Part shown: in pieces, positions 17,150-64,000 of the stretch
Position numbering within the stretch: the stretch's first letter is position 1
How the letters are laid out: the number at the start of each line of letters is the position of its first letter
Assembly (NCBI GenBank): GCA_021815785.1
Contig: JAKAZS010000003.1
Span: 1,111-65,110, forward strand
DNA: 64,000 nucleotides
Source: a bacterium
GTDB taxonomy: Bacteria > Cyanobacteriota > Vampirovibrionia > Obscuribacterales > JAKAZS01
Direction: 5' to 3'
Notes under the pieces: generated by a model
Databases searched by the model: none
Told to the model about the DNA's origin: nothing
Seen by the model: only the letters and a program-made list of their open reading frames with translations
Position numbers and translations under genes: made by a program

Positions 17150-19369
17150 ATGGAAATAAACCAGCCCAATTCAGCAAAAGTCGTAAGCCACAGCCATTCT
17201 GGCTTGTTTTGGTGTTTAATTATTGCTACTGGGCTTATTTTCACAATTTTATCTTCCTTTATTCCTTATTTATGGAAAACCGAATATCAAGTTGGTGATA
17301 TTGCCAAAAAAAATATTATTGCTGATAAAACTGTAACAATTATTGATAAAGTCAAAACGCATAGTTTAAGGGATGCTGCCCGTCAAAAAGTTATTCCGGT
17401 TTTTAAAACCAACAAAGATAATGATACCATATCCTCCACCAAATTAACCAAAAAGATCAACGATATTGAAACTTTACAAGCCAACAATATCAAACCATTA
17501 CCTGATAAATTAAATTTAAATGGCTTTAAACACTTTCAATTATTATTAATGAGTGATAAAGAATTAAATGACTTTCTGGCTAAATTTACCAATAATAAAG
17601 CCAGTCAGATTAAAGCCATACTTACAATAATTAACCAGGAAAAAGCTTACCTCAAAAAGAATCATTTCGATGACATTGAAATTTTAATTGCCTTAAATGT
17701 TACCCCTAAACAATTACCAAATTTTAAAACCGAATTAACCAATTCAATGGAACGAATTCTGGACTGTTTGCAAAGATTTCCCGTAGAGAAGAAAAATGTT
17801 TGGGAAAAACCTATTATTGAATTCTTACCCGATAACTGGCAAATGAATCTACGCTATCAATGTGCTAAATTAATCAGTGAAATCCTAGAACCTAATTTTT
17901 CCGTTGATGAAGCTAAGACCAAAACCTTATGTGAAACAGCTGCAGCTCAAATACCTGAAGTCTATATTACGGTCAATAAAGACCAAGTTGTGGTGAAAAA
18001 AGGTAGTATCATATCTAATGAAGACCTTAAAATAATTAAGGCGATAAGCGGAGAGACCCTTAAATTCTGGCCATATTTGTTTGTAATTAGCTTAACGACT
18101 TTTGCAACATTTTTATTTTGTGGTTTATACATAATTACCTTTGAACCCAAATTAATTAACCAGAAATCCTCAATTGGACTTATTTTAACCATGGTAGTTC
18201 TCACTATGGCCATAGCTGGCATCATGAGTCATAAGCTCTTTGAATTCATACCTTTACCTGCTTTAAGCCTTATTTTAACCATATTTTTTGGTCGTAACTT
18301 AGCGAGTATTATTACATTACCGATTATAATCTTGTTATTCTGTGGCCAAATTCTTGAACCAGGAGTACTTACCAGTCTTGGCCTAGCCAGTTATGCCGCA
18401 ATTATTTTTTATAATAAACAAAATCGCAATTCTCTGGCTGTAACTGGTCTTATTATTGGACTGGTTCAGGGTTCAACTTTTATCCTCTTTTTAGCTTTAA
18501 CTGAACCCATTTTTTCCTTACCATATTTATTTAACGAATTTTTAGCCAATTTTTTTGGCGGTCTTATTTCCAGTATTTTAGCTGTTGGCAGTTTACCTTT
18601 TCTTGAACATCTGTTTGGACTATTGACTCCAGATAGACTAGCTCAATTAGTTGAATCCGACCAACCTTTACTGCGCAAATTAGAAGAGTTAGCACCCGGA
18701 ACCTATCAGCATTCTTTAGCTGTAGCCAATTTAGCCGAAGCTGGAGCTGCTGCAATCGATGGTGATGTAAATTTAGCCAGAGCCGGAGCCCTTTATCATG
18801 ATATTGGCAAAATGGTAAAAGCTGAATATTTCATTGAAAATCAGTTAGGCAGTGCTAACCCCCATGACAGTCTAGAACCAGAACAAAGCCGAGAAAAAGT
18901 GCTCGCCCATGTAACTGATGGGGTTAAATTAGCCATCAAATATCGAATACCTAAAGCTGTTCAAGATTTTATTCCCATGCATCAAGGCACCAGCCTAATG
19001 GCTTACTTTTATCATAAAGCCTGTGTCCGTGATGGCGAAGCTAAAATTGACGCCAATTTTTATCGTTACCCTGGCCCTAAACCAAATACTAAAGAAACCG
19101 CAATTGTCATGATGGCTGATGTATCCGAAGCTGCAACCCATTCATTAAAAAATCCAACCGAAGAAGAAGTCAAAGAAGTAATCTCGGGAGTTTTCAAGAA
19201 TAGACTCGAAGACGGTCAGTTTACCGATAGTAGTTTATCGCTAGAAGAATTAACGAAAATTGAAAATGCTTTTGTGCGAGTTTGGCGCACCTTACACCAT
19301 GATCGGTTAAAATATCCATCAACTTCAACCGGGAAAATGGCAATTTATAAAACAAATAATAATTCATAG
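17150..19369 (+). CDS. 7TM-receptor HD-domain phosphohydrolase (PgpH/YqfF-like)
   Basis: 739 aa. N-terminal extracytoplasmic domain, about 7 TM helices, and a C-terminal HD domain (YQHSLAVANLAE...LYHDIGK). Confidence 0.85.
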   Translation: MEINQPNSAKVVSHSHSGLFWCLIIATGLIFTILSSFIPYLWKTEYQVGDIAKKNIIADKTVTIIDKVKTHSLRDAARQKVIPVFKTNKDNDTISSTKLTKKINDIETLQANNIKPLPDKLNLNGFKHFQLLLMSDKELNDFLAKFTNNKASQIKAILTIINQEKAYLKKNHFDDIEILIALNVTPKQLPNFKTELTNSMERILDCLQRFPVEKKNVWEKPIIEFLPDNWQMNLRYQCAKLISEILEPNFSVDEAKTKTLCETAAAQIPEVYITVNKDQVVVKKGSIISNEDLKIIKAISGETLKFWPYLFVISLTTFATFLFCGLYIITFEPKLINQKSSIGLILTMVVLTMAIAGIMSHKLFEFIPLPALSLILTIFFGRNLASIITLPIIILLFCGQILEPGVLTSLGLASYAAIIFYNKQNRNSLAVTGLIIGLVQGSTFILFLALTEPIFSLPYLFNEFLANFFGGLISSILAVGSLPFLEHLFGLLTPDRLAQLVESDQPLLRKLEELAPGTYQHSLAVANLAEAGAAAIDGDVNLARAGALYHDIGKMVKAEYFIENQLGSANPHDSLEPEQSREKVLAHVTDGVKLAIKYRIPKAVQDFIPMHQGTSLMAYFYHKACVRDGEAKIDANFYRYPGPKPNTKETAIVMMADVSEAATHSLKNPTEEEVKEVISGVFKNRLEDGQFTDSSLSLEELTKIENAFVRVWRTLHHDRLKYPSTSTGKMAIYKTNNNS

Positions 19370-19425
19370 TAAAATAATAATAAATTTCCTATTTTAATTT
19401 ATTTTGTCAAAGGGGTTGTAAACAA

Positions 19426-19905
19426 GTGAATATTATCCGCGAAAAAATCCTTAACGGAAACCAGGCTCTTTCTCAAATTATTAGCCAATTCTTACCTCAG
19501 TTAAGAGGGAAGATTAATGACGCTAATTTAATGTGGTTAGCCTGTGAATTACAAGGTTTTCAAAATACGCTTACCTATTATAAAAATGGCGATCCCAGCC
19601 TGCCCCCTTTTCGCACGGTAGCCGGAATCTTACGGGTTGTCAACTCAAATGCCGAATATGCTCCCCTTAATCATCCTTTTGCCCAACGCACCCATTTTTT
19701 TATTAGCTCCCCATTATCCTGGATTGAAGAAGCTATACAACAGCAACAAGGTGACTATGTCTTAGTTGAACTGCCTGATTTAACGACAATGTTTAAATTA
19801 CCGAATCAAATCGTTGTCTGCGAATGTACTAAAGCAGAATTGTCAAAAATTTTATACAATGTAAGATTAAAGTTTCTGGATTTAGCTGATGAAGTTGTAA
19901 AATAA
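19426..19905 (+). CDS. hypothetical protein (GTG start)
   Basis: 159-aa ORF between the pgpH-like gene and fabZ. No family recognised with confidence. See the finding on a weak AbiTii-like motif pattern. Confidence 0.55.
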   Translation: MNIIREKILNGNQALSQIISQFLPQLRGKINDANLMWLACELQGFQNTLTYYKNGDPSLPPFRTVAGILRVVNSNAEYAPLNHPFAQRTHFFISSPLSWIEEAIQQQQGDYVLVELPDLTTMFKLPNQIVVCECTKAELSKILYNVRLKFLDLADEVVK

Positions 19906-19974
19906 AGACTTAATGGTTCCCATCAAAAATAAACTATTAACTTAGGCCAAATATTACCTTAACTAGGAGAAAAA

Positions 19975-20439
19975 ATGTCGAATATTTTAGCAGAAAAATA
20001 TATGAATATTAATGAAATCAAAGAATTAATTCCTCATCGCTATCCATTTTTACTTATTGACAGGGTAACTTATATTGAACCAGGCTTAAAAGGTAAAGGC
20101 TATAAAAATTTAACCGCCAATGAACCATTTTTTCAGGGTCATTTTCCCGATCGCCCCATTATGCCAGGGGTACTAATGATTGAAGCTTTGGCTCAATTGG
20201 GTTGTGTGGCAATTTTGTCAAAAGATGAATTTAAAGGAAAAATTGGTGTATTTTCGGGTATTGATGGCTTTAAATTCCGCGCCATGGTAACACCTGGAGA
20301 TAGACTCGACATGGAAGTAGAATTAATTAGAATGAAAGGCCCCCTTGGCAAAATGTCAGCCAAAGCCTATGTTGGCGACAAATTGGCTTGTGAAGGTGAA
20401 ATTAGTTTTACCATGATAACTAAAGAACAGTTAAAATAA
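19975..20439 (+). CDS. fabZ: 3-hydroxyacyl-ACP dehydratase FabZ
   Basis: 154 aa. LIPHRYPFLLIDRV and FFQGHFPDRPIMPGVLMIEALAQ. Confidence 0.95.
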   Translation: MSNILAEKYMNINEIKELIPHRYPFLLIDRVTYIEPGLKGKGYKNLTANEPFFQGHFPDRPIMPGVLMIEALAQLGCVAILSKDEFKGKIGVFSGIDGFKFRAMVTPGDRLDMEVELIRMKGPLGKMSAKAYVGDKLACEGEISFTMITKEQLK

Positions 20440-32413: not shown

Positions 32414-33820
32414 TTATGAAGGCTTTAGCACATCAAGTTGTAACCATTTTAGTTTAGCAAAATAAATAGTCATAATAATCGTGGAAAATGTATTAGAAAT
32501 AACCATGGCGATAAATACCCCCACCGGACCTAGTTTAAGCGCTAAATAATAGGCAACTGGAAGTCTTATGCACCAGTTAGCTATTAAACTAATTAACATA
32601 GCAAATTTAGTATCACTAGCTCCTTGCAAAGCTCCAGTGATTACCATGGTAACGGCTAGAAAAGGTTCCGCAACAGCATTAAATTTTAAGTAACAAGCAA
32701 CCAGTTTTATGGTTTCACTATCCAAGCTTGACAACTTAGCTAAGTAGCCAGACGCTAAATACATTAACACGCTACAGACTAACATTAGACTAACTGCGAC
32801 TTTAACTACTTTAAGCGTAGCATCATAAGCGCGTTTATAATTATGAGCACCAATAGACTGACCAACAATTGGTGTTACCGATAAAGATAACGCTACCAAT
32901 GGCATAAATAAGAGCGCTTCAATTCTAAGCCCGACCGACCAAGCTGCTATAGCTGATGTTGAATGACAACAGGTTGAAAATATATAAAATAAGACAAAAA
33001 CGGAAATAACCCAGTTCATTCTTTGAATTGCAGCAGGAAACCCAATTTTAACGATAGATTTAATATATTCAAAATTGATATATTTAGGTTTAAAAATACT
33101 TAAGTTAAATAAAGCCGATTTGGTATATAAAAACAAAGCTAATACTGCACCAATAGATGTAGCTGTAATACTGGCTAAAGCTATACCATTAGTACCAAAA
33201 AGCGTTAACGGAAATTTAAGATAAACCAATAAAAAATCCAGTAAAATATTTAAAATCGTAATTGTTAATACCACCATCATCTGCATTTTCGCATCACCAA
33301 TGGAGCGAAAACTTGCATTAAAAGTAACGACAAAACTAAATGGAATATAAAACCAAGAATATGTCTGCAAATATTTGGTTGCTAAAGCTAAGACGTCAGG
33401 TTTTAAATTTAATAATTTTAAAATATAACCACCAGAAAAATATTGGATGAATAACAGCAGGATACTTAAAACAACGGTAAAACCAAGTGAGCTAATTAAT
33501 AAAATCTGCGCTTTATTTTTTTCATTTGCTCCCCAGGCCTTAGAAATTAAAGCAGTAGTACCAACACCCATCGATATTATAATTACTTCAAAAAGAAACA
33601 AAACCTGTTCACCAATACCAACTGAAGCTTGTGATATCGTTCCTAAATATTTAGCGACCTGAACATCAGCTATACCAATAGTCGAATTGGAAACCGTACT
33701 TATTAATAAGGGATAAGACATCCGCCAGATAGCTTTCCACAAAGATCCACTACTTAAATTAGCTGGTTCAATTTTTGCCATAGCTAATGAATCTTGTGAA
33801 TCGCCACTTGCTTCACTCAT
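32414..33820 (-). CDS. MATE/MOP-superfamily transporter
   Basis: 468 aa, 12 TM. N-terminal [34 protein letters not shown] is typical of MATE proteins. The start overlaps the uxs stop by 4 nt. Confidence 0.8.
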
Positions 33821-34749
33821 TGCTTAGACTGCTTATACCAGTCAATAGTAGTTTTAAGACCATCAATTAAATTTACTTTTACATTCCAATTTAAAATTGA
33901 TTTAGCCCTAGTAATATCCGGTAATCGTTTTTGGGGATCATCAACAGGTAGTGGCTCAAAAATTATTTTACTTTTAGAACCAGTTAATTTAATAATTATA
34001 TCAGCTAATTCTAAAACCGTTTTTTCTTCTGGATTACCCAAATTTATCGGTTCATGATATTCAACATCCATAAATTTCGAAATACCATTAATAAGATCAC
34101 TAATATATTGAAAACTCCTAGTCTGCTCTCCAGCTCCATAAACAGTGATATCTTCATTATTGAGTGCCTGTTTAATAAAATTAGAAACAACTCGGCCATC
34201 ATTAATTCTTAGTCGTGGTCCATAACAGTTAAAAATTCTAATTATTCTTGTATCTAATTTGTGTTTATGATGATAGGCCATAGTTAAAGCTTCAGCAAAG
34301 CGTTTGGCTTCATCATAAACACCACGCGGACCAATCGGATTTACATGCCCCCAGTAGGATTCAGTCTGGGGGTGAATTTGGGGATCACCATAAACTTCAG
34401 AAGTGCTAGCCAAGAAAAATTTTGCTCCTTTAGCTAAAGCTAAGCCAAGACTATTATGGGTACCTAATGAATTAACCTTTAAAGTTTCAATAGGCAATTG
34501 CAGATAATCAACGGGAGAGGCTGGCGAAGCAAAATGGATAATCCAGTCTAATTGACCAATTAAATGAATATGATTACTGACATTATGATGGATAAATTCA
34601 AAATTCGGATTACTTAAATGTTGTTTAATATTATCAATACATCCGGTAATCAGGTTATCCATTACAATAACCTTGTTACCTTCACTAATAAGCCTATCGG
34701 TTAAATGTGACCCAATAAATCCAGCCCCACCAGTTATTAAAATTCTCAT
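33817..34749 (-). CDS. UDP-glucuronate decarboxylase (UDP-xylose synthase), SDR family
   Basis: 310 aa. [52 protein letters not shown]. Confidence 0.85.
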
Positions 34750-36137
34750 AAACCAATACCTTTGTAATTAAAACCAAGTTCGATTAAGTGTTCCTTGTTA
34801 AGACAATTTCGACCATCAATAATTAACGGATTACGGACTAATTTTTTGATATTTTCATATTTGGCTAAAATAAATTCACTCCATTCGGTAACTAAAATCA
34901 AAGCATCAGTATCCCGAGAAAGATCTTCAATATTATTAGCAAAAATCACATCAAGGTCTGGACGTTGCTGTTTTAAAGCATCATGAGCAACTGGATCAAA
35001 AACCTTAACACTAGAACCCATTTTCAATAATTGTGTGATAATTGATATGCTGGGAGCATCACGCAAATCATCGGTATTTGGTTTAAAAGCCAGTCCCATG
35101 ATACCAATTTTACGGCCTTTGATAATTTTTAATTCTTCTTGCAATTTACGAATTACAATAAGACGTTGAGCTTCATTAACCTTAACTGTAGCTGGTAATA
35201 GGTTTAAGGCTAAATCATATTCACTGGCAATATTAATGAGCGCACTGACATCTTTTTTAAAACAACTGCCACCCCAGCCAATACCAGCATTTAAGAAGCT
35301 GCGGCCAATTCTTGAATCCAATCCGATAGCGTCCATAACATGATTAATGTTGGCGCCAACTTTTTCACTAATATTAGCTATTTCATTGGCAAAACTGATT
35401 TTCATGGCTAAAAATGAATTAGAGGCATATTTTATTAATTCCGCTGAAGCTATGTCAACTTCAATAAGTGGTACTGCTTTTAGATGTTTAGGGCGTAAAA
35501 TATTAAGGGGCTGATCAAAACTTTGAGATAGTATCGGTTCATAAAGTTTTCTGATAACACTACTACTGGTATCATCACTCACACCAACAACAATTCGATC
35601 GGGATAGAACGAATCAATTAAAGCTGTTCCTTCACGCAAAAATTCAGGATTACTAACAACGCTAAAACTAATTGGATTAATTTTTTGACTGCGGGCTGGT
35701 GTTAACTGAATTTGTTGAATAGACTGACTTATTAACATTTCTACCCAATTACCAGATCCAACCGGTACTGTAGACTTATTAATAATAATGCGATGCTGCG
35801 TTGAATCAAGTGCTTGACCAATAGACCGAGCCGCATTGAGAAGTTGGCTTAAATCAGGCTGACCATCTATTCCTGATGGCGTACCAACTGTTATAAATAT
35901 TACTTGAGCAGCTTTAATTGCATCACTAGCCTTACCGGTAAAACTTAAATTACCATTGTTAACCACTATCCTTACTAAATTTTCTAAATTCGGCTCATAA
36001 AAAGGTACTGTACCTTTCATTAAATATTCAAGCTTTACTTCATCCGTTTCGATATTGACAACTTTATGACCTAGATAAGCTAAGGTAGAACTAGTTACTA
36101 AACCAACATATCCTGCACCTAAAACCGCTATATTCAC
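34746..36137 (-). CDS. ugd: UDP-glucose 6-dehydrogenase
   Basis: 463 aa, GTG start. [19 protein letters not shown] catalytic Cys region, [13 protein letters not shown]. Confidence 0.9.
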
Positions 36138-53332: not shown

Positions 53333-53644
53333 TGATATCCCCTATGAACAAACAGCTAGCTAATCATGCCCTTGGTGTTGGTATGCAAATTGAAATAGAT
53401 ACAAACATATGGATTATTAATTCTAAATCCTTTTTATAAAGATTTGGGCTTTTGACATAGGTATGTTGACATTTATTAGATAAATTTTTTCTCAGAATCT
53501 GTATATTCAATAAATATAAGGATTTTATTCTAAATAATTATTAAATATATGAACAACACAATTTAACATTTGCGTTAAAATATTTATATATTGTTAAATA
53601 GATAGTAATTTTTTTTGCTTTCGTATTAATTGTATTGTTTTTAT

Positions 53645-53738
53645 GGGGATAGCTCTTTACTGGTGTAAGGCTCGGTCTTCAAAATCGATGTTGGAACAAA
53701 AATTCCAGGATGGGTTCAATTCCCATCTATCCCCGCCA
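53645..53738 (+). tRNA. selC: tRNA-Sec (selenocysteine, anticodon UCA), CCA encoded
   Basis: Reading 5' to 3': GGGGATAG (acceptor 5' strand), CT, CTTTAC-TGGT-GTAAGG (D arm), C, TCGGT-CTTCAAA-ATCGA (anticodon arm), TGTTGGAACAAAAATTCCAGG (variable arm), ATGGG-TTCAATT-CCCAT (T arm), CTATCCCC (acceptor 3' strand), G, CCA. This gives an 8-bp acceptor stem, a 6-bp D-stem with a 4-nt loop, an anticodon loop identical to E. coli selC, a long variable arm and a 5-bp T-stem, i.e. the bacterial 8/5 Sec fold. 94 nt. Confidence 0.92.
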
Positions 53739-53763
53739 TTATTAAAAGCTACAGCATTGTCTA

Positions 53764-53873
53764 GGTTTAATTCCCATCTATCTACCTGCTACCTGCTACC
53801 TGCTACCTGCTACCTGCTACCTGCTACCTGCTACCTGCTACCTGCTACCTGCTACCTGCCCGCCATTATTAAA
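53764..53873 (+). repeat. partial duplicate of the tRNA-Sec 3' end plus 8 nt of 3' flank, interrupted by a heptamer array (att-like scar)
   Basis: GGTTTAATTCCCATCTATC [array] CCGCCATTATTAAA compares with GGTTCAATTCCCATCTATCCCCGCCATTATTAAA at 53713-53746. There is one substitution, and a 76-77-nt insertion sits inside the C-run of the acceptor 3' strand. Confidence 0.85.
53783..53859. repeat. 11 perfect tandem copies of the heptamer TACCTGC
   Basis: Counted directly: 77 nt with no variant units. Confidence 0.95.
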
Positions 53874-53912
53874 TTATTTATAAAATTTAAAGAATTTAGC
53901 GCCGAAAAAATT

Positions 53913-53941
53913 TTGACAGAATACATTAAATTGTATTAATA
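53913..53941 (+). promoter_or_regulatory. candidate sigma70-type promoter for the Xer-like recombinase gene
   Basis: TTGACA (53913-53918), a 17-nt spacer, then TTAATA (53936-53941). Read by eye only. Confidence 0.35.
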
Positions 53942-53960
53942 TTAATCCGGCTAACTTATT

Positions 53961-54917
53961 CTGATAAATTTTCAAAAGGTTTTAAATATAATTACAAAAT
54001 CCCATTACCATAATTTATTATCTGAATTTTCAGCATATTTACTATATGAACGTAATTATTCTGATAAAACCGTTACGGCCTATTGTCATGACGTAATTGA
54101 TTTTATCAACTTTACCTATCCCAACTTTACTGACACTATCGATAATGAAAATTTTTATACGAGCAATTTGGCTAATTTAACGATTAATGACATTAGAATG
54201 TATTTAAATCAATTGCGGCAAAATTACGGCAAATCAAGTTATGCCCGCAAATTATCTTCATTAAAAAATTATTTTAATTATTTAGTTCGAGGCAAAAAAC
54301 TAGCCCATAACATCTTTAAAGAAATTAAGACGCCTAAATTAAACCGAAAATTACCATTACTTTTAAATAAAAATGAAATTGACAAACTAATAAAAGCCTG
54401 TGAGAAAGAAGAATTTGGCTTAAGGGACCAAGCACTTATTGAAGTTCTTTACGCTTCAGGAATTCGGGTTAGTGAATTAGTCAATTTAAAAGTTACTGAT
54501 TATAACAAATCACAACTAGAACTTATTGTATTTGGCAAAGGCGCAAAAGAAAGACTTGTCTTACTAACGAATGAGGCCAAACAAAGTCTGGAAAAATATC
54601 TTACTTGTTTGCGCCCTCGACTGTTACAAAACCCTGCTCAGACAGCATTATTTGTCAACAAATATGGCAATAAACTTACAACCAGAAGTATTGAGCGTTT
54701 AATCAAGAAATACAGCAAATTGGCCAAGTTGTCAAAGGTGGTATCACCCCATACCTTAAGACATTCATTTGCCACACATTTACTTGAAGGTGGAGCCGAT
54801 TTACGGGTAGTTCAAGACCTTTTAGGACATGCTTCAATTAGTACCACGCAAATATACACTCATGTGTCATTGGATCGCCTGAAAAGAATTCATAATTTAT
54901 ACCACCCACGCGCTTAA
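53961..54917 (+). CDS. XerC/XerD-like tyrosine recombinase; the N-terminal core-binding domain lies upstream of the track's TTG start and has no canonical start codon
   Basis: C-terminal catalytic domain ASGIRVSELVNL, HTLRHSFATHLLEGGADLRVVQDLLGHASISTTQIYTHV, ends HPRA. The frame stays open back to 53955 and encodes LLSEFSAYLLYERNYSDKTVTAYCHDVIDFINF (SAM-like N-domain motif). No ATG, GTG or TTG occurs in frame between 53955 and 54167. Candidate starts are CTG 53961, ATA 53988 and ATT 53991, the last two with AAGG 8-11 nt upstream. Confidence 0.75.
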   Translation: MINFQKVLNIITKSHYHNLLSEFSAYLLYERNYSDKTVTAYCHDVIDFINFTYPNFTDTIDNENFYTSNLANLTINDIRMYLNQLRQNYGKSSYARKLSSLKNYFNYLVRGKKLAHNIFKEIKTPKLNRKLPLLLNKNEIDKLIKACEKEEFGLRDQALIEVLYASGIRVSELVNLKVTDYNKSQLELIVFGKGAKERLVLLTNEAKQSLEKYLTCLRPRLLQNPAQTALFVNKYGNKLTTRSIERLIKKYSKLAKLSKVVSPHTLRHSFATHLLEGGADLRVVQDLLGHASISTTQIYTHVSLDRLKRIHNLYHPRA

Positions 54918-54967
54918 ATTAGCATATCTACTAACTGCGTGCTTAATCTAAGATCTCGTTTTAATTT

Positions 54968-55072
54968 ACCAAAATCAAATTAAATCTATCCTGATTATTA
55001 TTATTTTGATAGCGAAAGCGACAGCTGTAGTCATTGGTTAACAAAATCAAATTAAGGCTATCCTAATTACTA
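54968..55072. repeat. 33-bp imperfect direct repeat pair between the convergent xer-like and rlmB-like genes
   Basis: ACCAAAATCAAATTAAATCTATCCTGATTATTA (starts 54968) versus AACAAAATCAAATTAAGGCTATCCTAATTACTA (starts 55040), 28 of 33 identical by eye. An ACAGCTGT palindrome lies between them. Confidence 0.6.
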
Positions 55073-55096: not shown

Positions 55097-55981
55097 CTAA
55101 TTTACATAAGCTTGACGATAAATTTCATATAAAATTATCGAGGCAGCTACTGAAACATTTAATGACTCAGTTTTACCAAGCATGGGAATCTTAATCATAA
55201 AATCACATTCTTCTTTAACCAGGCGGGAAATTCCACTGCCTTCAGCACCTAAGACTAAGACCATAGGATAGGCCAGTTTAGCTTCATATAAATTTTCTTG
55301 AGCACTAGCATCTAGCCCAGTTATCCAATAACCAAGCTTTTTCAACTCTTTGAGACTGCGGACTAAATTAACAACCTCGATAATCGGGAAATAAGCCATA
55401 GCACCACTACTAGCCTTAATGGAAATTGCATTAATTGTAGCAGTCCGACGTTTGGGCACAATTACCGCTAAAGCTTTGACGGCCTCAGCCGTTCGGATAA
55501 TAGCTCCCAGATTGCGCGGATCTTCAATACCATCAAGTACTAGAACGCAACTGGCCGGGTTGGCTGACTGATTTCGTGGATTAGACTTACTTAAGTCAGC
55601 AAAAAAATCACTAAATTCAACCGCATTAATCGTCGTTAACTGAGCTACAACACCTTGATGATTATCCTTACTTTGGATCATTCGCTCAAGTTTAAATTTT
55701 GAACAATCCTGAACAATAATACCCAATTTAACTGCCATGTGTTTTATAGCCTTTAATTTAGCATCATTAGCCATATCATTGGCCATGAAAATTTTCGAAA
55801 TCCGCCAGCGTTTGTCATCGCTAGGTACAGTTTGTTCGAGTTCGTTTTCTTCAGCGTTTAATCTCGATAAATACTCCCAAACTGGATTTTTGCCATAAAT
55901 TATATTGGCTAAATTTTCATATTCACTATCCATACCTGGTGAGATAAAATTGTTTTGCGTATTATTGCGGTTTCGCTTCAT
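55097..55981 (-). CDS. rlmB: SpoU/TrmH-family RNA 2'-O-methyltransferase (RlmB-like)
   Basis: 294 aa. YGKNPVWEYL substrate-binding N-domain, DGIEDPRNLGAIIRTAEA, LVLGAEGSGISRLV, ESLNVSVAASIILYE. Confidence 0.85.
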   Translation of the reverse strand: MKRNRNNTQNNFISPGMDSEYENLANIIYGKNPVWEYLSRLNAEENELEQTVPSDDKRWRISKIFMANDMANDAKLKAIKHMAVKLGIIVQDCSKFKLERMIQSKDNHQGVVAQLTTINAVEFSDFFADLSKSNPRNQSANPASCVLVLDGIEDPRNLGAIIRTAEAVKALAVIVPKRRTATINAISIKASSGAMAYFPIIEVVNLVRSLKELKKLGYWITGLDASAQENLYEAKLAYPMVLVLGAEGSGISRLVKEECDFMIKIPMLGKTESLNVSVAASIILYEIYRQAYVN

Positions 55982-56043
55982 CAGAAAATAATGTATAAAA
56001 TAAATTAAGTATTAAAAGTTGGAAATAATTATTTTAAGATTTA

Positions 56044-56244
56044 ATGTTAATAGATATCCTATTTTTTGGTATGCCTCTATCAACTTGTATCATTTTAACA
56101 ATGGTAGCATTAAGGCATCGTGAAGTCTATTTTTTAAATTCGGCTATTTGCTTTGCATTATACTGCATCTTTTATCTAAGCTATGGCCGAGCCATAATAT
56201 TTTATTTGTGTTCGATGTTTATGATGGGTGGTGTTTTATTTTAA
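56044..56244 (+). CDS. possible small two-TM membrane protein (weak call)
   Basis: 66-aa hydrophobic ORF in an AT-rich spacer. It could be spurious. Confidence 0.25.
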   Translation: MLIDILFFGMPLSTCIILTMVALRHREVYFLNSAICFALYCIFYLSYGRAIIFYLCSMFMMGGVLF

Positions 56245-56253
56245 TTATCAGCT

Positions 56254-56505
56254 TTATTCAGCTGTTTTTTTCTTAACCGCCGCGTTAATAAAATGCCTGT
56301 TTTGTTGAGCTTCGGCTAATGAACGCATCGGGATATTATGTTTTTTAAGCCAGCGCGAAATAGTATTTGGGTCACACCACATCCCTTCTTCATCACGATA
56401 AGATCGAGCGATTTCCACAGTGCTTAATTTATCCTTGACATATTTTTGCATTAGCCAGTTTTTATCTTGATATAGAAATTTTGTTGATCTTAAGTTTTTT
56501 GCCAT
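56254..56505 (-). CDS. small basic protein with a helix-turn-helix-like segment
   Basis: 83 aa. KLSTVEIARSYRDEEGMWCDPNTISRWLKKHNIPMRS resembles an HTH with a recognition helix. No family assigned. Confidence 0.45.
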   Translation of the reverse strand: MAKNLRSTKFLYQDKNWLMQKYVKDKLSTVEIARSYRDEEGMWCDPNTISRWLKKHNIPMRSLAEAQQNRHFINAAVKKKTAE

Positions 56506-56648
56506 GAATTAATCCAATTAAAAATTTTAGGGTTATGCTATATATAGCTTATAATAAGATAGCTAATAAATACATACCTTCAATAAGCTTTCTTAAAACA
56601 AATAATTTATTTTTTAATTTTAGCTAACATCGTTGTCAGTATAAACCA

Positions 56649-58037
56649 ATGCGTAATATTCCTGATATTAATTCACTGTTAAATCACCCTCAATTATCGG
56701 GCAAATTAAAGCAAAACCTCTTAGCTAAATTAATTCGACAACAAATTAACATTTTAAAAGAAACATCTAAGGACAGTCTTAATTTAGCTGTTGACAAGAA
56801 TGAAAGATCGCTATTGACAAAAAAAATCATTACCGGGGTTTTAAAAGACGTCGAAAAATTAACTAATTATAATATTAAAAGGGTGATAAATGGCAGTGGG
56901 GTAATTTTAAATACTAATTTAGGCCGTTCCCCAATACCCCAAACCGTTGTTGAATATCTAAGTCAAAACCTAAACGCCTACCTTGATTTAGAAGTAGATA
57001 TCGAATCTGGTAAAAGAATTGAACGAACCCATAATGCTGAAAATTTATTGAAATTTTTAACCGATGCCCAAAGTTGTCTTATTGTGAATAATAATGCTGC
57101 AGCACTTACCCTAATTATTAACACATTTTCGCTTAATAAAGATGTAATTATTTCCCGAGGGGAATTAGTCGAAATTGGTGGCAATTTTCGCTTACCCGAC
57201 ATTATTGAGGCTTCCGGTGGGATTTTAAAAGAAATTGGCAGTACGAATAAGACTAAAATTACTGACTATGAAAAAGCTTTAAACAATGAAACTGGCTTAA
57301 TTTTAAAATGCCACAAATCTAACTTTAAGGTTTTAGGTTTTACCCAGGATGTTGATTTGTTAAGTATTAATCAACTAAAACGTAAAATTCCTTTAGTCTA
57401 TGATCTTGGTAGTGGTATTTTTGAAGGCTATTTAGACGTTAAACAAACAATGCCAATCAATGACTTTATCATCAACGCTAAAATGCTCCAACATCTTGAC
57501 CTGCTCTGCTTTTCTGCAGACAAACTACTAGGTAGTTTACAAGCCGGAATTATTTTAGGTAAGGAGAAATACATAAACAAACTTAGGATTAACCCACTTT
57601 ACCGTTCTTTGCGGCTAGACAAAGTATCAATTATGATTTTAGAAAAATGCCTGCAACTTTACCTTAAACAAGAATCCTTTGATGAGTTTCCGGGTTTAAA
57701 AGTCTTAAATATCGACAAAACCAATTTAAAGTCAACAGTACAGAATTTTATCAATTGGCTCAAACCTGAAATTAACTCGCTAATACTTAGACCTATTGAA
57801 ACGCAAGCAATTCTAGGTGGTGGTAGTATAAGCGACCTTAAACTTGATAGTTACGGATTAATTATTGAGTCAATGAAAAACCTTACCGCTAATTCTCTTA
57901 ATAAGTTTTTTCGCTTAAGCAAACCAGCCATAATTGGCCAAATTCAACACAATCAATATATAATTGACTTTGCGACTTTATTAAATGATGACTTGACTTA
58001 CCTAGCAAAGGCGATAAAGGAACTTGATTTAAGTTAA
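56649..58037 (+). CDS. selA: L-seryl-tRNA(Sec) selenium transferase SelA
   Basis: 462 aa. The PLP-lysine region LLCFSADKLLGSLQAGIILGKEKYINKLRINPLYRSLRLDK parallels E. coli SelA [20 protein letters not shown]...HPLKRALRADK. The N-terminal IPDINSLLNHP fits, and the length matches. Confidence 0.9.
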   Translation: MRNIPDINSLLNHPQLSGKLKQNLLAKLIRQQINILKETSKDSLNLAVDKNERSLLTKKIITGVLKDVEKLTNYNIKRVINGSGVILNTNLGRSPIPQTVVEYLSQNLNAYLDLEVDIESGKRIERTHNAENLLKFLTDAQSCLIVNNNAAALTLIINTFSLNKDVIISRGELVEIGGNFRLPDIIEASGGILKEIGSTNKTKITDYEKALNNETGLILKCHKSNFKVLGFTQDVDLLSINQLKRKIPLVYDLGSGIFEGYLDVKQTMPINDFIINAKMLQHLDLLCFSADKLLGSLQAGIILGKEKYINKLRINPLYRSLRLDKVSIMILEKCLQLYLKQESFDEFPGLKVLNIDKTNLKSTVQNFINWLKPEINSLILRPIETQAILGGGSISDLKLDSYGLIIESMKNLTANSLNKFFRLSKPAIIGQIQHNQYIIDFATLLNDDLTYLAKAIKELDLS

Positions 58038-58246
58038 ATATGGCTAAACTAAAAATTGTCAGTAGATCGAAGCATAATAACTCGAACTAATAGATTCTCT
58101 GATTGGAAAAGGCTTAAACAGGTAACACCTAAACAAAGTTAAGATTGATTAAGTATCAATTATTTGTCAAGCATGTTTTATCAGAAAATTAAAGGTTATA
58201 ATCATCCTTTAGTAATGCAAATTTATTTTTCAAGAGGTTGAATTAA

Positions 58247-58507
58247 ATGGAAGGTAACGATTTAAACAAAGCTTTAACTGATTTAAGCAATAAAATTGAT
58301 AGCCAGGCAAGATTTACGCGATCTTTAGTAGTAATATGTTGCATGGCAGGTATTGGAGTCATTTACTACACATTTATCCAATTATTTAACACCCTTCCTG
58401 ATCAAATAATTATGACTTATATGGGTAAACTAAGTGACATTCAAACACAGTGGAAAGTGATTGAGAATACTCAAAACAGAAATGCTGCAGCAAAGGCTAA
58501 TAAATAA
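58247..58507 (+). CDS. hypothetical small single-TM protein
   Basis: 86 aa with a central TM segment, LVVICCMAGIGVIYYTFIQLF. Confidence 0.45.
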   Translation: MEGNDLNKALTDLSNKIDSQARFTRSLVVICCMAGIGVIYYTFIQLFNTLPDQIIMTYMGKLSDIQTQWKVIENTQNRNAAAKANK

Positions 58508-58530
58508 TTTTTAATTATAATTTAAAACAT

Positions 58531-58572
58531 AAAAGTAGCCAAGTTAACTAATTAGTTAATATGGCTACTTTT
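58531..58572. terminator. bidirectional terminator hairpin between convergent genes
   Basis: AAAA-GTAGCCA-aGTTAACTAatTAGTTAAta-TGGCTAC-TTTT. The 3' arm overlaps the stop codon of the 771-aa gene. Confidence 0.55.
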
Positions 58573-60880
58573 GTAATAAGCGTTTTCGTCTTTCTACTTC
58601 AGCCTCAACTTCTTCAACTGAAATCGCATTTAAAGTCATTGGGCCAACACAGGTTTCTTTCCACGGTTGTCCTTCGAGTGCTTGTCGAACAATAACCTCA
58701 AATACCTGAGACCGTATACCAGTTCCATAATTACCAGAACCAAGCCCCCCTCCAGATACTGTAGTACTTCCGGCTTTTTTATAACTGAAATCATAAGTTG
58801 AAGCTTTATTCCCTTGCGCCAAACTAGGCATTTGATTAGCCGTTGAGGCTCCTGGCGATACTAAAGGGTTAACTGTTGGATTAGGAGTATTAAGCGCAAA
58901 GGCTGGATTACTTTCCTTAACTACCGGTTGATTCGGATTTAAAACTGGAGCAGTAATTTTTGGAGTTTGATTAACAGTTTGTTTGGCAATTACATTGTTT
59001 TGTTCTAATAAACCAGTCTGAACTGGCTTGTCAAACATTGGCCGAGCCGGACCGCTATCAAACAGTGATGGTGAATCTTCATCTACGGGGTTAGCATCAA
59101 AAAAACCCGGCTCAATAGTTTGTGCCTTATTTTCGGGCTTAAATAACGGTTTAGCCGGTTGGTTATTTTGAGCCACTACATTATCAGTTTTAACTGGCTT
59201 AATGTTAGCCTGAAGACTTTGGGTGGGGTTAGCTTTTAAATTTTGAATTTCATGTTGTAAATTTGCTGATTCAGTAGCTGATTTACTTAATTCTGATTGA
59301 AGATTAGTTATCATATCCTTATATTGATCCTTTAATTCTTCAATTTGAGCTTTGAGCTGGTTAACTTCCATGGTTTTATTCGATAATTCGTAGTCCTTAT
59401 TTTGTAAAATACTATCTTTTTCTACCAGTATTGAACTTTGATCATTAAATGAGTTATTTAATTCCGAAAATTTATTATTGAGATCTTCAAATTTGATTCT
59501 TAATTCATCACTGCCTTCAGCTAATTCTTGATCACGAATATTTAACTGTTCATTTAACAATTCTTCTTGTAATAATAAATTTTCCGTAAGCTTAGCATTG
59601 GCCTGTTTTAATTCATCAAGTTCTTTAAGTATTTTCGGATTTGGCATTGATTCAAATTGACCTGAGTTATTAACCGGCCCAGTCGATTGAACTGCATCAT
59701 AAGCCGCTCGAAACAAATTTCCGGCCAAACGTTGAGTACCCAAAAGTTCAACTAACCGATGTAATAAGTCAGCTGGATGATCATCAGGAAAAATTGACGT
59801 ATAAGCACATTTAAATGTCCAGGGATCAATTAAACCATTAGATAATTGATCTGCCAAATTAGTAATTAATTCATCAGGGGTAAATTTATTCTGATTATAC
59901 TGTTCTTGATCTAATTTGGAGTCAATAGCCGAAACTAGTTCGGATATAGCTGGAACCAATTCACCAACGGCTTGAAGTGGTTCTAATGCAGCTCCCAAAG
60001 AATCAATCAGAACAGTTAGGTTAACACCTAATTCACCAAGAGAATTAACATTAGAATTACTTTTGGTTTCAATAAACTCCTTAATCATATGATGAATTTG
60101 AGCAATATTGGTCGCACAAACATCGACGCCAAGATCAAGATTTTGAATTATGGCTAAAGTATCTTGACTTAATCCAGGATCATTTTTGAAGATTTCTTTT
60201 TCATCTTTATTAACAATTTCTGGAGATTTTTCCGTTGAATTGCCTTTATTTTTAGTCTTAACTGATTTAGTTGAAACATTATTAGAATTTACACTGGCAT
60301 TTTTTGAATTACTTTCAAGGTTAAAATTCAAACTTGCGTCATCTAAAACTAAATCTTCATGATTGGACAATGTTGGGGTTTCCTTATTAAATGTTAGATT
60401 TTGGGGAACAGTTTCTTCATGGTCAAAAATTTCATTATTAGCTAGATCTAAAGCCAATTCAGGACTAACAGTAATAACGTTTTGAGTCTTATGGTCAATT
60501 TGATAATTATTCATAGGATCTAAATTATCATCAAAAATGTTATTGACAATAATTTCATTAGTTTGGGATTCCAGCTGATTAAAAGTTGCTGGTTCAGCTG
60601 GATAATCAGTTGACTGGTTATAACTAACTTGTTGATTTGACACATTTTGCTGATTGTCAACTTGACTACTATTGCTTTGACCATTATTATTAGGATTATT
60701 GGCTGCTATATTTTGATTAACGTTAGCTCCAGCTGTACTCGGAAAAACGGCTAAACCAAAAGGGTCAGAAGACACAGCCTGTTTAGTTAATGTACCTCGA
60801 AGCCGAGCGCGGCGTTGAGCTAAAGATTCAGACTCATTGTTAGCTTTTGCTGATTGTCGATTATCTTCATTTGCTACCAT
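58565..60880 (-). CDS. hypothetical N/Q-rich protein with a long central coiled coil
   Basis: 771 aa. Disordered N/Q/S-rich N-terminal third, a helical middle and an extended heptad-like region (ELDELKQANAKLTENLLLQEELLNEQL...QLKAQIEELKDQYKDMITNLQSEL). A P/N-rich segment and a short conserved-looking C-terminus follow. Confidence 0.65.
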   Translation of the reverse strand: MVANEDNRQSAKANNESESLAQRRARLRGTLTKQAVSSDPFGLAVFPSTAGANVNQNIAANNPNNNGQSNSSQVDNQQNVSNQQVSYNQSTDYPAEPATFNQLESQTNEIIVNNIFDDNLDPMNNYQIDHKTQNVITVSPELALDLANNEIFDHEETVPQNLTFNKETPTLSNHEDLVLDDASLNFNLESNSKNASVNSNNVSTKSVKTKNKGNSTEKSPEIVNKDEKEIFKNDPGLSQDTLAIIQNLDLGVDVCATNIAQIHHMIKEFIETKSNSNVNSLGELGVNLTVLIDSLGAALEPLQAVGELVPAISELVSAIDSKLDQEQYNQNKFTPDELITNLADQLSNGLIDPWTFKCAYTSIFPDDHPADLLHRLVELLGTQRLAGNLFRAAYDAVQSTGPVNNSGQFESMPNPKILKELDELKQANAKLTENLLLQEELLNEQLNIRDQELAEGSDELRIKFEDLNNKFSELNNSFNDQSSILVEKDSILQNKDYELSNKTMEVNQLKAQIEELKDQYKDMITNLQSELSKSATESANLQHEIQNLKANPTQSLQANIKPVKTDNVVAQNNQPAKPLFKPENKAQTIEPGFFDANPVDEDSPSLFDSGPARPMFDKPVQTGLLEQNNVIAKQTVNQTPKITAPVLNPNQPVVKESNPAFALNTPNPTVNPLVSPGASTANQMPSLAQGNKASTYDFSYKKAGSTTVSGGGLGSGNYGTGIRSQVFEVIVRQALEGQPWKETCVGPMTLNAISVEEVEAEVERRKRLLQK

Positions 60881-61176: not shown

Positions 61177-64000
61177 ATGTTAGTTTTTAATATTTGTCAT
61201 AATTGTGGAAATTCTAAAGTTGTTAGCGGTCAACCATGTTTAAACTGTGGTGAAATAATTTCAAAATTTTCAGCCACTGAATTACCTAGTCCACTAATTA
61301 TTTTTCAGCCTCTAAATATCAATTTAACCTTAGACTTATCCTTAAGCGAAAAAGTGTTAACTAATATCCGTTTTAAAAAACTAATAGCTGATAATAACAA
61401 ACCTAATCCAAACGTTACCCAAGAAACAAATAACAGTATTAGCCAAATTGCGGATACGGATCCAACCCGTAATCAACCAAAACCAGAAGCTCTAACTTTA
61501 TTTAATGAAGAAAATATTTTAGATAATGACTTAAACTATCGCAACAAAGACCAAATAGCTCCACTAAATGGTCCTAGTTTGTTTGAAGATGATAATGACC
61601 TGAGTTACCCAAACAATGTAACAGTAGATATTAATAAATCAATTCAGCCGAGCAATTCGCCTAGTATTCATAATTTTCAACCCAGTCAATTGCCAATACC
61701 TAATAATGTAGCGTCAACCAGTGTAAAGAATGATAAATCTGAACCATCTCTGGAAAAACTAGTTGAGGACTTAACGCTTAGTTTAAATAACATGTTGACG
61801 GCCAATGAAGCAAAATCTGATTTACCACAAAATAATCTTAATGAATCAACACAGCAACGTGAATTTGGCCAGTTAAATAATCCGTCAGTTAACGAGTCAA
61901 CACAGCAACGTGAATTTGGTCAGTTAAATAATCCGTCAGTTAACGAGTCAACACAGCAACATGAATTTGGCCAGTTAAATAATCCGTCAGTTAACGAGTC
62001 AACACAGCAACGTGAATTTGGCCAGTTAAATAATCCGTCAGTTAACGAGTCAACACAGCAACATGAATTTGGTCAGTTAAATAATCCGTCAGTTAACGAG
62101 TCAACACAGCAACATGAATTTGGTCAGTTAAATAACAATTCAAGTTCAGACCCAAAACAAAATATCGACAATACCAACCAATCAAAGTTAAACAATGACG
62201 CTCAAGATCAACAAAAAGAATCTCCCATAGATACCCCTACAAAACCTAACAATAATACCAGTCAAACCAAGGATACCGTTTCAAGTAACACTTTAAATTT
62301 ACTAAATTTTGATTTTAATCCTATTCCCCAAGAATCACCAACTAAAGCCCAAACACCAAATACCAATAAAACAAATACCCAGACTGATTATAAGCCCGAA
62401 ACATCTAAAGGCTTTGATGATTTTCCCAGCTTGGCTGAATTAAATACAACTTCAACTTCTATTCGATCCGATAATTTAAAACCTAAGAATTTTGTAAAAC
62501 AAGCCCAAAACAATCTTAAACATGCTCAAACTAATGACGAAGAAGACGATGATGATGAAAATTTTGATTACAATCACCCTGTAAAAGCCAAATCCGGTAA
62601 ACCTTCTGCCAAGAAAAAAAGTACTTATAATGACACCGAAAATGATCCTGATGATGATCCCCCGAAATTTAAATTACGTAAATTCTCCACTAAAAATATC
62701 CCTGATGACGGTGAAGAAGAAGGAGAAGAAGAAAACATTTCCCCGAAACACAAATTACGTAAATTCTCGACCAAAAACAAAATAAGCAATAATGGTTCTG
62801 ATGATGATGATGATGAAAGCGAAGATAATGAAAAGACTATTATTAAAGGCAATGCAAAATCTCCAAAATCAAAAAGTAAAAAAGCTAAAGATAGCTTAGA
62901 TACAGATGAAGACAATGACAATGTTAATTTATTCAATCGCCAAATTAACATTTTAGGAATATCGCTACCACTAACAACGATATTAATTATCGGCTTTTTT
63001 GGCCTGTTTATTTTCTGGCAACTAGTAAGTGGTATTGGTTCAATTGTTGGCGGATTAGGTTCAGTTGGCAGCAACCTTAATATTATGAGTAATAATAATA
63101 CACCTTCATTAAGTGGAGCCTGGAAATTTGTAGCTGTAGCTCAAGGTCAAAAATGTGAAGGTTATTTTAATCTAGAACAAAGTAATAATCAAATAGCTGG
63201 TGACGGTCGCGATAATAATGGCAATTTTGAAATTATTGGAACTTTTACGCCTCCTAATAAAATTAATTTCGTAAAAAAATATTATGTAAACGGTCAAGAA
63301 GTATTTAAACCAGTAAATTTTGATGGCTTAATCAATTTCGAACAGAATCCGCTTTACGTTCAAGGTTCGTTTAATGTGACTTTCCGCCAAAATTATGGCT
63401 GGCGTGGTCATCCGGTTACTGTTGTTGGACAGTGGGAAGGTATTTTAGCTAAGCCAATGAATAATCAGGTAACCGATAATGCCCGTTTTAATAAAGTCCA
63501 TCATATTCAGTCAACCGGCTTTAATCCCCTTAACAATTTAACTAATTCTTTTACCTATGCAGCAGTTGGTGGTATAGGATTAGCCGTATTTTTAATATTT
63601 TATTCGATACATTTATTTGGGCCAAATGGAAAAATTCAAATTTCTGAAAAACAACGTTATGTTACTTCCCAGTTTAAATCACAACATATAAAAATGTTAA
63701 AAGAAATGAGTGCCCCTTATAAAATTGGTGGCTTATCTTTAGGAACACGTTGTGAGTGGAAATTCTTTAAATTCTGGGAAATTAAAGAATTGGCTTTTAC
63801 TCCAAAAATCCGTGACAAAAACCCTCACTCACTAATTCTGGGCACAGCCAATAAAGGTAAAACCAGGTTGGTTGCCAATTTCATAACGCAGGATATTCTA
63901 GCCAAAGATCGCGCAGTTGTCGTCATCGATTCAGACGGTGGTTTAGTTGATTTAATTTCACAATGGATTGCTTCTCATGAAAAAGGAAAAACTATTGCCA
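61177..64000 (+). CDS. large membrane-anchored P-loop NTPase (type IV coupling protein / HerA-FtsK-like) with an N-terminal zinc ribbon and repeat-rich arm; 3' end beyond the window
   Basis: Not in the ORF track. I read every codon from ATG 61177 to nt 64000 and found no stop. CHNCGNSKVVSGQPCLNCG; 6 x 17-aa repeats; two TM helices (about 62950-63020 and 63555-63620); Walker A LILGTANKGKTRLV followed by AVVVIDSDGGLVDL. Confidence 0.85.
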   Translation, partial: MLVFNICHNCGNSKVVSGQPCLNCGEIISKFSATELPSPLIIFQPLNINLTLDLSLSEKVLTNIRFKKLIADNNKPNPNVTQETNNSISQIADTDPTRNQPKPEALTLFNEENILDNDLNYRNKDQIAPLNGPSLFEDDNDLSYPNNVTVDINKSIQPSNSPSIHNFQPSQLPIPNNVASTSVKNDKSEPSLEKLVEDLTLSLNNMLTANEAKSDLPQNNLNESTQQREFGQLNNPSVNESTQQREFGQLNNPSVNESTQQHEFGQLNNPSVNESTQQREFGQLNNPSVNESTQQHEFGQLNNPSVNESTQQHEFGQLNNNSSSDPKQNIDNTNQSKLNNDAQDQQKESPIDTPTKPNNNTSQTKDTVSSNTLNLLNFDFNPIPQESPTKAQTPNTNKTNTQTDYKPETSKGFDDFPSLAELNTTSTSIRSDNLKPKNFVKQAQNNLKHAQTNDEEDDDDENFDYNHPVKAKSGKPSAKKKSTYNDTENDPDDDPPKFKLRKFSTKNIPDDGEEEGEEENISPKHKLRKFSTKNKISNNGSDDDDDESEDNEKTIIKGNAKSPKSKSKKAKDSLDTDEDNDNVNLFNRQINILGISLPLTTILIIGFFGLFIFWQLVSGIGSIVGGLGSVGSNLNIMSNNNTPSLSGAWKFVAVAQGQKCEGYFNLEQSNNQIAGDGRDNNGNFEIIGTFTPPNKINFVKKYYVNGQEVFKPVNFDGLINFEQNPLYVQGSFNVTFRQNYGWRGHPVTVVGQWEGILAKPMNNQVTDNARFNKVHHIQSTGFNPLNNLTNSFTYAAVGGIGLAVFLIFYSIHLFGPNGKIQISEKQRYVTSQFKSQHIKMLKEMSAPYKIGGLSLGTRCEWKFFKFWEIKELAFTPKIRDKNPHSLILGTANKGKTRLVANFITQDILAKDRAVVVIDSDGGLVDLISQWIASHEKGKTIA
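61843..62148 (+). repeat. six tandem 51-bp units inside the giant ORF
   Basis: Unit GAGTCAACACAGCAACGTGAATTTGGCCAGTTAAATAATCCGTCAGTTAAC encodes ESTQQ(R/H)EFGQLNNPSVN. Units start at 61843, 61894, 61945, 61996, 62047 and 62098. As read, differences are essentially CGT/CAT and GGC/GGT, plus the edges of the first and last units. Confidence 0.95.

Follow-up and report, generated by a model that had tools for sequence, protein, structure and literature searches.

A tRNA-Sec gene and a constrained, syntenic selA in Candidatus Melainabacteria

Does the 94-nt element at positions 53645-53738 (+) of a 64,000-nt stretch of DNA (hereafter, the window) encode a genuine selenocysteine tRNA, and what would its presence say about selenocysteine (Sec) decoding in the Melainabacteria, the non-photosynthetic sister lineage of Cyanobacteria? 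The Sec-decoding trait went undetected in Cyanobacteria in a 2006 comparative survey (PMC1794560), and in the text of a 2016 survey Cyanobacteria come up solely in connection with orphan SelD (PMC5029168). One NCBI-annotated Sec-containing protein appears, incidentally, in work on a Ca. Melainabacteria MAG (PMC9529120), the supplements of which contained nothing useful on melainabacterial selB or selD annotations, and SelA has already been annotated by NCBI in a melainabacterial MAG. In the searchable literature, we found no paper joining "selenoprotein" with Vampirovibrionia and none devoted to the subject in Melainabacteria. The kind of element described here is fully known and its presence in the lineage is not unprecedented; what this analysis adds is evidence of constraint on selC and selA, together with the conserved synteny of selA.

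A search of the whole window with ARAGORN returned two tRNAs, one of which was a tRNA-SeC at exactly 53645-53738 (+) with anticodon tca at position 35. When all Rfam families were scanned with thresholds set at their gathering scores, the tRNA-Sec family RF01852 matched positions 53645-53734 over the full model (1-91), with a score of 72.4 bits (E 6.9e-13) against a gathering score of 47. Both tools therefore bear out a preliminary description of this DNA, which had read a canonical 94-nt tRNA-Sec (selC) at these exact coordinates from the letters alone.

The helix positions of the tRNA were established by an explicit pair check, helix by helix. The acceptor stem (1-8/83-90, GGGGAUAG/CUAUCCCC) is paired at all eight positions and is followed by a 2-nt linker, CU, and by a D-stem, CUUUAC/GUAAGG, in which six of six pairs form, including one G.U, around a 4-nt D-loop (UGGU). 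The anticodon stem (27-32/40-45) is paired at five of its six positions, with a C27.U45 mismatch, and supports a 7-nt loop, CUUCAAA, that has the expected U33 and a purine at position 37. The variable arm comprises a 6-bp stem (UUGGAA/UUCCAG) and a 6-nt loop (CAAAAA), and a single-nucleotide linker, G65, precedes a T-stem (AUGGG/CCCAU) that is paired at five of five positions and carries a 7-nt T-loop, UUCAAUU. The 3' end consists of the discriminator G91 (G73) and an encoded CCA. The fold drawn by eye in the preliminary description, with its 8-bp acceptor stem, 6-bp D-stem and 4-nt loop, long variable arm, 5-bp T-stem, discriminator G and encoded CCA, consequently stands in each of its parts. 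Its anticodon loop, CTTCAAA (UCA), was said to match that of E. coli selC and is identical to the verified reference, and the block-for-block layout claimed for the two tRNAs is seen in acceptor, D and anticodon helices that occupy the same positions.

The acceptor and T-stems stack into 13 bp (8/5), compared to 12 bp (7/5) in the canonical arrangement. Minimum free energy (MFE) calculations with RNAfold favored a 7/6 register (-31.5 kcal/mol) over the 8/5 register (-30.4 kcal/mol), a gap of 1.1 kcal/mol; this split is preferred thermodynamically because G65 is able to replace G8 as the partner of C83, and the 13-bp stack is unchanged between the two registers. The fold is more stable than that of shuffled sequences (z = -3.3), with 2 of 200 shuffles reaching equal stability. 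A consensus scan revealed a promoter-like site matching at 10 of 12 positions (TTAACA-18-TATATT, 53563-53592, +) some 52 nt upstream of the tRNA, which constitutes a weak lead only, since the count of such sites in the region does not exceed shuffle expectation; no significant promoter or terminator was found around the tRNA gene. By every feature checked, the element belongs to the bacterial tRNA-Sec family, and the sequence evidence makes it very likely that 53645-53738 (+) is a functional selC of a Candidatus Melainabacteria bacterium.

The ORF listing places over this tRNA a 98-aa reading frame (53643-53939, +) that runs through the tRNA, a downstream duplicate of the tRNA end and a heptamer array; the preliminary description had noted that it translates the tRNA and the array, which holds, and had called it spurious. 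With its ATG start and 98 open codons, this frame might be taken for a real small protein with a CYLLPAT repeat, in which case the tRNA-like fold would be incidental. We compared nine copies of the locus, eight conspecific and one from the sister species, and found that the ORF starting at the same ATG spans 98, 78, 70, 63 or 32 aa, with unrelated C-termini and frame-shifted tails in otherwise near-identical strains, because the (CTACCTG)n array that it crosses changes in frame-shifting 7-nt steps. Furthermore, the invariant block among these copies is exactly the 94-nt tRNA and nothing else, and the gene callers of public assemblies place no call between rpoB and the downstream recombinase gene. 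A protein-coding origin of this frame is hence barely credible: the 98-aa ORF over tRNA-Sec is a chance reading frame and not a gene. For annotation purposes, the tRNA-Sec should be added and the 98-aa ORF dropped from any ORF track.

The window's SelA occurs in identical form on 17 contigs, which belong to several MAGs and metagenome assemblies (GCA_027366005.1, GCA_027399115.1, GCA_027405605.1, GCA_027405685.1, GCA_027405755.1 and ENA metagenome assemblies), and its ortholog in the sister species, a Candidatus Melainabacteria bacterium (L001), is 95 % identical. The AT-rich genome with a split rpoC remarked upon in the preliminary description is likewise confirmed: rpoC is divided into rpoC1 (597 aa) and rpoC2 (1223 aa), as explained by a Candidatus Melainabacteria host, with which the G+C content of 34 % also fits. 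The genes around the tRNA are arranged in the order rpoC2, rpoC1 and rpoB (all -), tRNA-Sec (+), an Xer-type recombinase (+), rlmB (-), an 83-aa ORF (-) and selA (+), followed by an 86-aa ORF (+), a 771-aa ORF (-) and an ORF of more than 1200 aa (+). The rlmB gene (55097-55981, -), encoding the 23S rRNA Gm2251 methyltransferase, was identified through TIGR00186 (223 bits, cutoff 160), and no NCBIfam family matched the 83-, 86- and 771-aa proteins.

Two in-frame tandem repeats were observed elsewhere in the window. The long reading frame that follows the 771-aa gene contains at 61838-62135 a 51-nt (17-codon) tandem repeat with 5.8 copies and 96 % identity, and measures 1241, 1275 or 1292 aa depending on the strain, that is, in steps of 17 aa. 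At 2858-3139, a 15-nt tandem repeat (18.8 copies, 88 % identity) lies inside ORF 2321-3976 (-), a 551-aa protein with faint pentapeptide-repeat matches that is 496, 526, 546 or 551 aa long by strain, indicating that its repeat number varies in frame.

SelA, or L-seryl-tRNA(Sec) selenium transferase, is the enzyme converting Ser-tRNA(Sec) into Sec-tRNA(Sec), and the gene encoding it (56649-58037, +) lies 2.9 kb downstream of the tRNA. The protein matches the TIGR00474 equivalog over its full length, with residues 1-457 aligned to profile positions 1-454 of 455 and a score of 421.5 bits (cutoff 267.9). It also aligns over residues 61-459 with the structure of Aquifex aeolicus SelA (3W1H; E 5e-90), with the NLGR and R..R.DK motifs aligned and conserved and with a PLP-lysine motif that reads SADKLLG in the window protein and SGDKLLG in Aquifex. 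Precomputed Pfam matches for the corresponding SelA cluster include PF03841 and lack PF12390, while TIGR00474 aligns from residue 1.

Comparison with the sister species yielded dN 0.024, dS 0.29 and dN/dS 0.084 for selA, the third codon positions of which have diverged by 15.6 %. Over the same split, the tRNA-Sec shows no changes in 94 positions, being 100 % identical among all strains and the sister species; at the selA third-position rate, the probability of 94 unchanged sites is ~1e-7. The intergenic spacer upstream of the tRNA has accumulated 13 substitutions and 18 gap columns relative to the sister species. The dN/dS of selA and the invariance of the tRNA thus point to purifying selection on both genes, which argues against a decaying pathway.

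To place this selA in a broader context, we ran a whole-database search, in which the closest non-conspecific SelA proteins showed 49, 46 and about 40 % identity; a further SelA, at 38 % identity, is named by NCBI as that of Candidatus Melainabacteria. We compared the gene neighborhoods of four of these loci (L009, L012, L019 and L020; SelA identities of 49, 41, 40 and 38 %), and all four present rlmB, one or more small ORFs, selA, a small ORF, an ORF of 665-786 aa and an ORF of more than 1100 aa, with rlmB placed alike relative to selA. Faint matches to TrwB/DUF87-type ATPases were seen for the >1100-aa ORF of this conserved neighborhood (window positions 55097-60880). The sharing of this context by 4-5 divergent lineages, in which SelA is 38-49 % identical, indicates vertical inheritance rather than recent transfer, and makes selA an old resident of the clade. 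A tRNA scan at two of these loci, those with SelA at 49 and 38 % identity, detected no tRNA-Sec at a distance of up to 10 kb from selA; only in the species group of the window do selC and selA lie close together.

SelB is accepted as the hallmark of Sec decoding (PMC5029168), and every form of selenium use depends on SelD (PMC1273633). Neither selB nor selD was found in the ~84 kb formed by the window and the genes 10 kb beyond either end; selB was sought among ORFs of suitable size, and the window ORFs of about 350 aa, the size of selD, correspond to FtcD, RuvB, a glycosyltransferase, TPR proteins and a class I aldolase-like ORF. In the four divergent SelA neighborhoods there is no selA-selB operon. 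A stop-to-stop scan treating TGA as sense disclosed no credible TGA-interrupted or selenoprotein gene in the 64-kb window; the candidates that it raised were rejected as out-of-frame noise in rpoB, rpoC and repeats, along with one TGA upstream of the class I aldolase-like ORF.

MsrA is a selenoprotein in some bacteria, and two tandem msrA (PMSR) genes occur about 7 kb before the window begins, at 18981-20176 of assembly L013. These were discarded as selenoproteins, the first having Cys (GCFWG) and the second no catalytic residue. The second gene, which reads AARFFYSN at the active site and bears an internal deletion in another assembly (L014), has the appearance of a decaying paralogue.

The absence of selB, selD and any selenoprotein gene from the ~84 kb around the tRNA is what would be seen if the tRNA were the relic of a decaying pathway, decoding nothing after selB and/or selD and all selenoprotein genes had been lost. 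In E. coli, however, selC, selD and selAB are scattered over separate chromosomal places, and absence from 84 kb therefore carries little weight. Bacteria often lose the Sec trait (PMC1794560), but a relic would be hard to reconcile with a selA that retains intact catalytic motifs and a dN/dS of 0.084, with a tRNA that is invariant across a species split of dS 0.29, or with the maintenance of selA in the same context in 4-5 divergent lineages. We consider a relic improbable, and a functional selC remains the favored reading.

The use of UGA in the window bears on what such a tRNA might decode. Among the 38 window ORFs of at least 150 aa, 28 end in TAA, 7 in TAG and 3 in TGA, and rpoB, rpoC1 and rpoC2 are free of in-frame TGA; apart from possible Sec codons, this genome continues to use UGA for termination. 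A pair of adjacent genes (33817-34749 and 34746-36137) that overlap their neighbors by 4 nt accounts for two of the three TGA stops. Because UGA retains this role, any insertion of Sec must depend on the context of the codon, as it does under the standard SECIS/SelB mechanism. For gene calling, not all UGA codons in this genome can safely be read as stops.

The rarity of UGA as a stop (3 of 38 ORFs) and the UCA anticodon, taken alone, would also fit a UGA decoder inserting another amino acid, be it an allo-tRNA or selC*-type tRNA for Ser or Cys, or a tRNA that suppresses or reassigns UGA in general. The allo-tRNAs that have been described combine acceptor and T-stems as 8/4 or 9/3. The window tRNA instead presents the full Sec-specific set (8/5 geometry, G73 and a 4-nt D-loop on a 6-bp D-stem), passes a Sec-specific covariance model well above threshold and has a dedicated SelA encoded nearby; in addition, genes still terminate at UGA, and in-frame TGA is missing from large conserved genes. 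Insertion of another amino acid is accordingly highly improbable, and we retain the assignment of this tRNA to Sec.

By analogy with the established bacterial pathway, SerRS would charge the tRNA with serine, reading its long variable arm and G73, and SelA, recognizing the 6-bp D-stem and 4-nt D-loop, would convert the seryl to a selenocysteinyl moiety using selenophosphate made by SelD. The 13-bp stack, rejected by EF-Tu, would then be read by SelB-GTP, which would deliver the bound Sec-tRNA(Sec) to a UGA upstream of a SECIS hairpin.

The 3' flank of the tRNA has a history of its own. The last 34 nt of tRNA and trailer (53713-53746, GGTTCAATTCCCATCTATC|CCCGCCATTATTAAA) recur from 51 nt downstream, split exactly at the bar by an array. 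The 5' part of the duplicate, corresponding to the T-loop and 3' acceptor strand, lies at 53764-53782 (+) and is identical to 53713-53731 in 18 of 19 nt; the 3' part (CCCGCCATTATTAAA, 53859-53873, +) is identical in 15 of 15 nt to 53732-53746, the tRNA 3' end plus trailer. The intervening array, which interrupts the duplicate precisely at the junction of ...CTAT and CCCGCCA, is the perfect heptamer microsatellite (CTACCTG)11 (53782-53859, +; TRF period 7, 11.1 copies, 100 % matches). Conspecific strains carry 4, 7, 11 or 12 CTACCTG units, with the exception of strain L003, which has none and lacks the duplicate altogether, and this duplicate is also present in the sister species, where it encloses one variant unit, CCACCTG. 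Within a genome, both copies share their trailer, TTATTAAA in the window and TAAATAAAA in the sister species. The presence of the duplicate in the sister species implies that it predates the species split and that the microsatellite expanded inside it, in a region that is polymorphic. The duplicate and array region shows no structure beyond chance (z = -0.39), and is therefore not a terminator or structured RNA.

The gene that follows (53988-54917, +) encodes a tyrosine recombinase of the XerC/XerD family (NCBIfam PRK00283, 312.5 bits, cutoff 279) that narrowly misses the equivalog cutoffs for XerC and XerD. Its frame (53955-54917) contains no ATG, GTG or TTG before 54168, and the profile match starts about 55 codons earlier than that; public gene calls shorten the protein to 249 aa. 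Alignment with the sister species places a 1-nt indel just upstream of 53988, where the frame is not conserved, and downstream of which the protein is 95 % identical. The start codon is probably a non-canonical ATA (53988) or ATT (53991), preceded by AAAGG.

A duplicated tRNA end beside a recombinase gene might denote an integrated island at selC, an interpretation that we rejected because the repeats enclose only 17-28 bp and do not include the recombinase. The window yielded no third copy of the tRNA end: a 26-mer search allowing up to 3 mismatches matched the tRNA only, and the best other Smith-Waterman score on both strands, 26, falls within the shuffle range of 20-26. A candidate third copy, AATTAAATCTATCCTGATTATTA at 54966, was dismissed with a score of 17 against shuffle maxima of 20-26. 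G+C content is flat and provides no island signal. A 35-nt direct repeat (54966-55000 and 55038-55072; 86 % identity, 72-nt spacing) is located between the convergent recombinase and rlmB genes, and shows no significant likeness to the 3' end of the tRNA. The tRNA-end duplicate and its array are non-coding flanking debris outside the tRNA, and the duplicate may represent the scar of a past recombination or slippage event.

Taken together, these data provide a record of Sec machinery, comprising selC and a constrained, syntenic selA, in Melainabacteria. We tentatively advance, with somewhat less than even confidence, a joint reading in which Sec decoding would be ancestral and vertically inherited in a large Melainabacteria clade, and in which the selC 3' flank would be a hot spot for recombination, recognizable by an att-like tRNA-end duplicate with a hypervariable heptamer microsatellite beside an Xer-type recombinase. 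If true, ancestral Sec decoding in Melainabacteria would imply a loss on the cyanobacterial side, that is, in the oxygenic Cyanobacteria.

To relate the locus to known systems, we compared the tRNA with E. coli selC, using as reference the tRNA-Sec annotated in 5425 of 5426 complete E. coli genomes. The two tRNAs share, at identical positions, acceptor stem 1-8, D-stem 11-16/21-26 with its 4-nt loop and anticodon stem 27-32/40-45, as well as the loop CUUCAAA, a 5-bp T-stem, the single G linker preceding it, G73 and the encoded CCA. They differ in length (94 nt in the window, 95 nt in E. coli), in the variable arm (a 6-bp stem with a 6-nt loop compared to 8 bp with 4 nt) and in the sixth anticodon-stem position, which is a C.U mismatch in the window tRNA and a pair in E. 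coli. In addition, the stems of the window tRNA are A/U-rich, with an MFE of -31.5 kcal/mol compared to -46.9 kcal/mol for E. coli selC, and, unlike in the latter, its G65 allows the alternative 7/6 register.

With respect to the Aquifex aeolicus system (3W1H, 3W1K), the PLP-lysine and arginine motifs are conserved in the window SelA, whereas its N-terminal tRNA-binding domain is divergent. In the A. aeolicus complex, SelA tells tRNA-Sec from tRNA-Ser by the 6-bp D-stem and 4-nt D-loop, and the window tRNA possesses this same feature.

Lastly, in enterobacterial selC-associated islands, tyrosine-recombinase integrases target the 3' end of tRNA-Sec. The locus described here resembles them in presenting a direct repeat of the tRNA 3' half downstream of the gene, a tyrosine recombinase within 250 bp and a strain, L003, without the repeat. 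It departs from them in that 17-28 bp separate the repeats, leaving no cargo, and in that the recombinase is located outside the repeats and is of the Xer type, not the P4 type, with no third site in the window.
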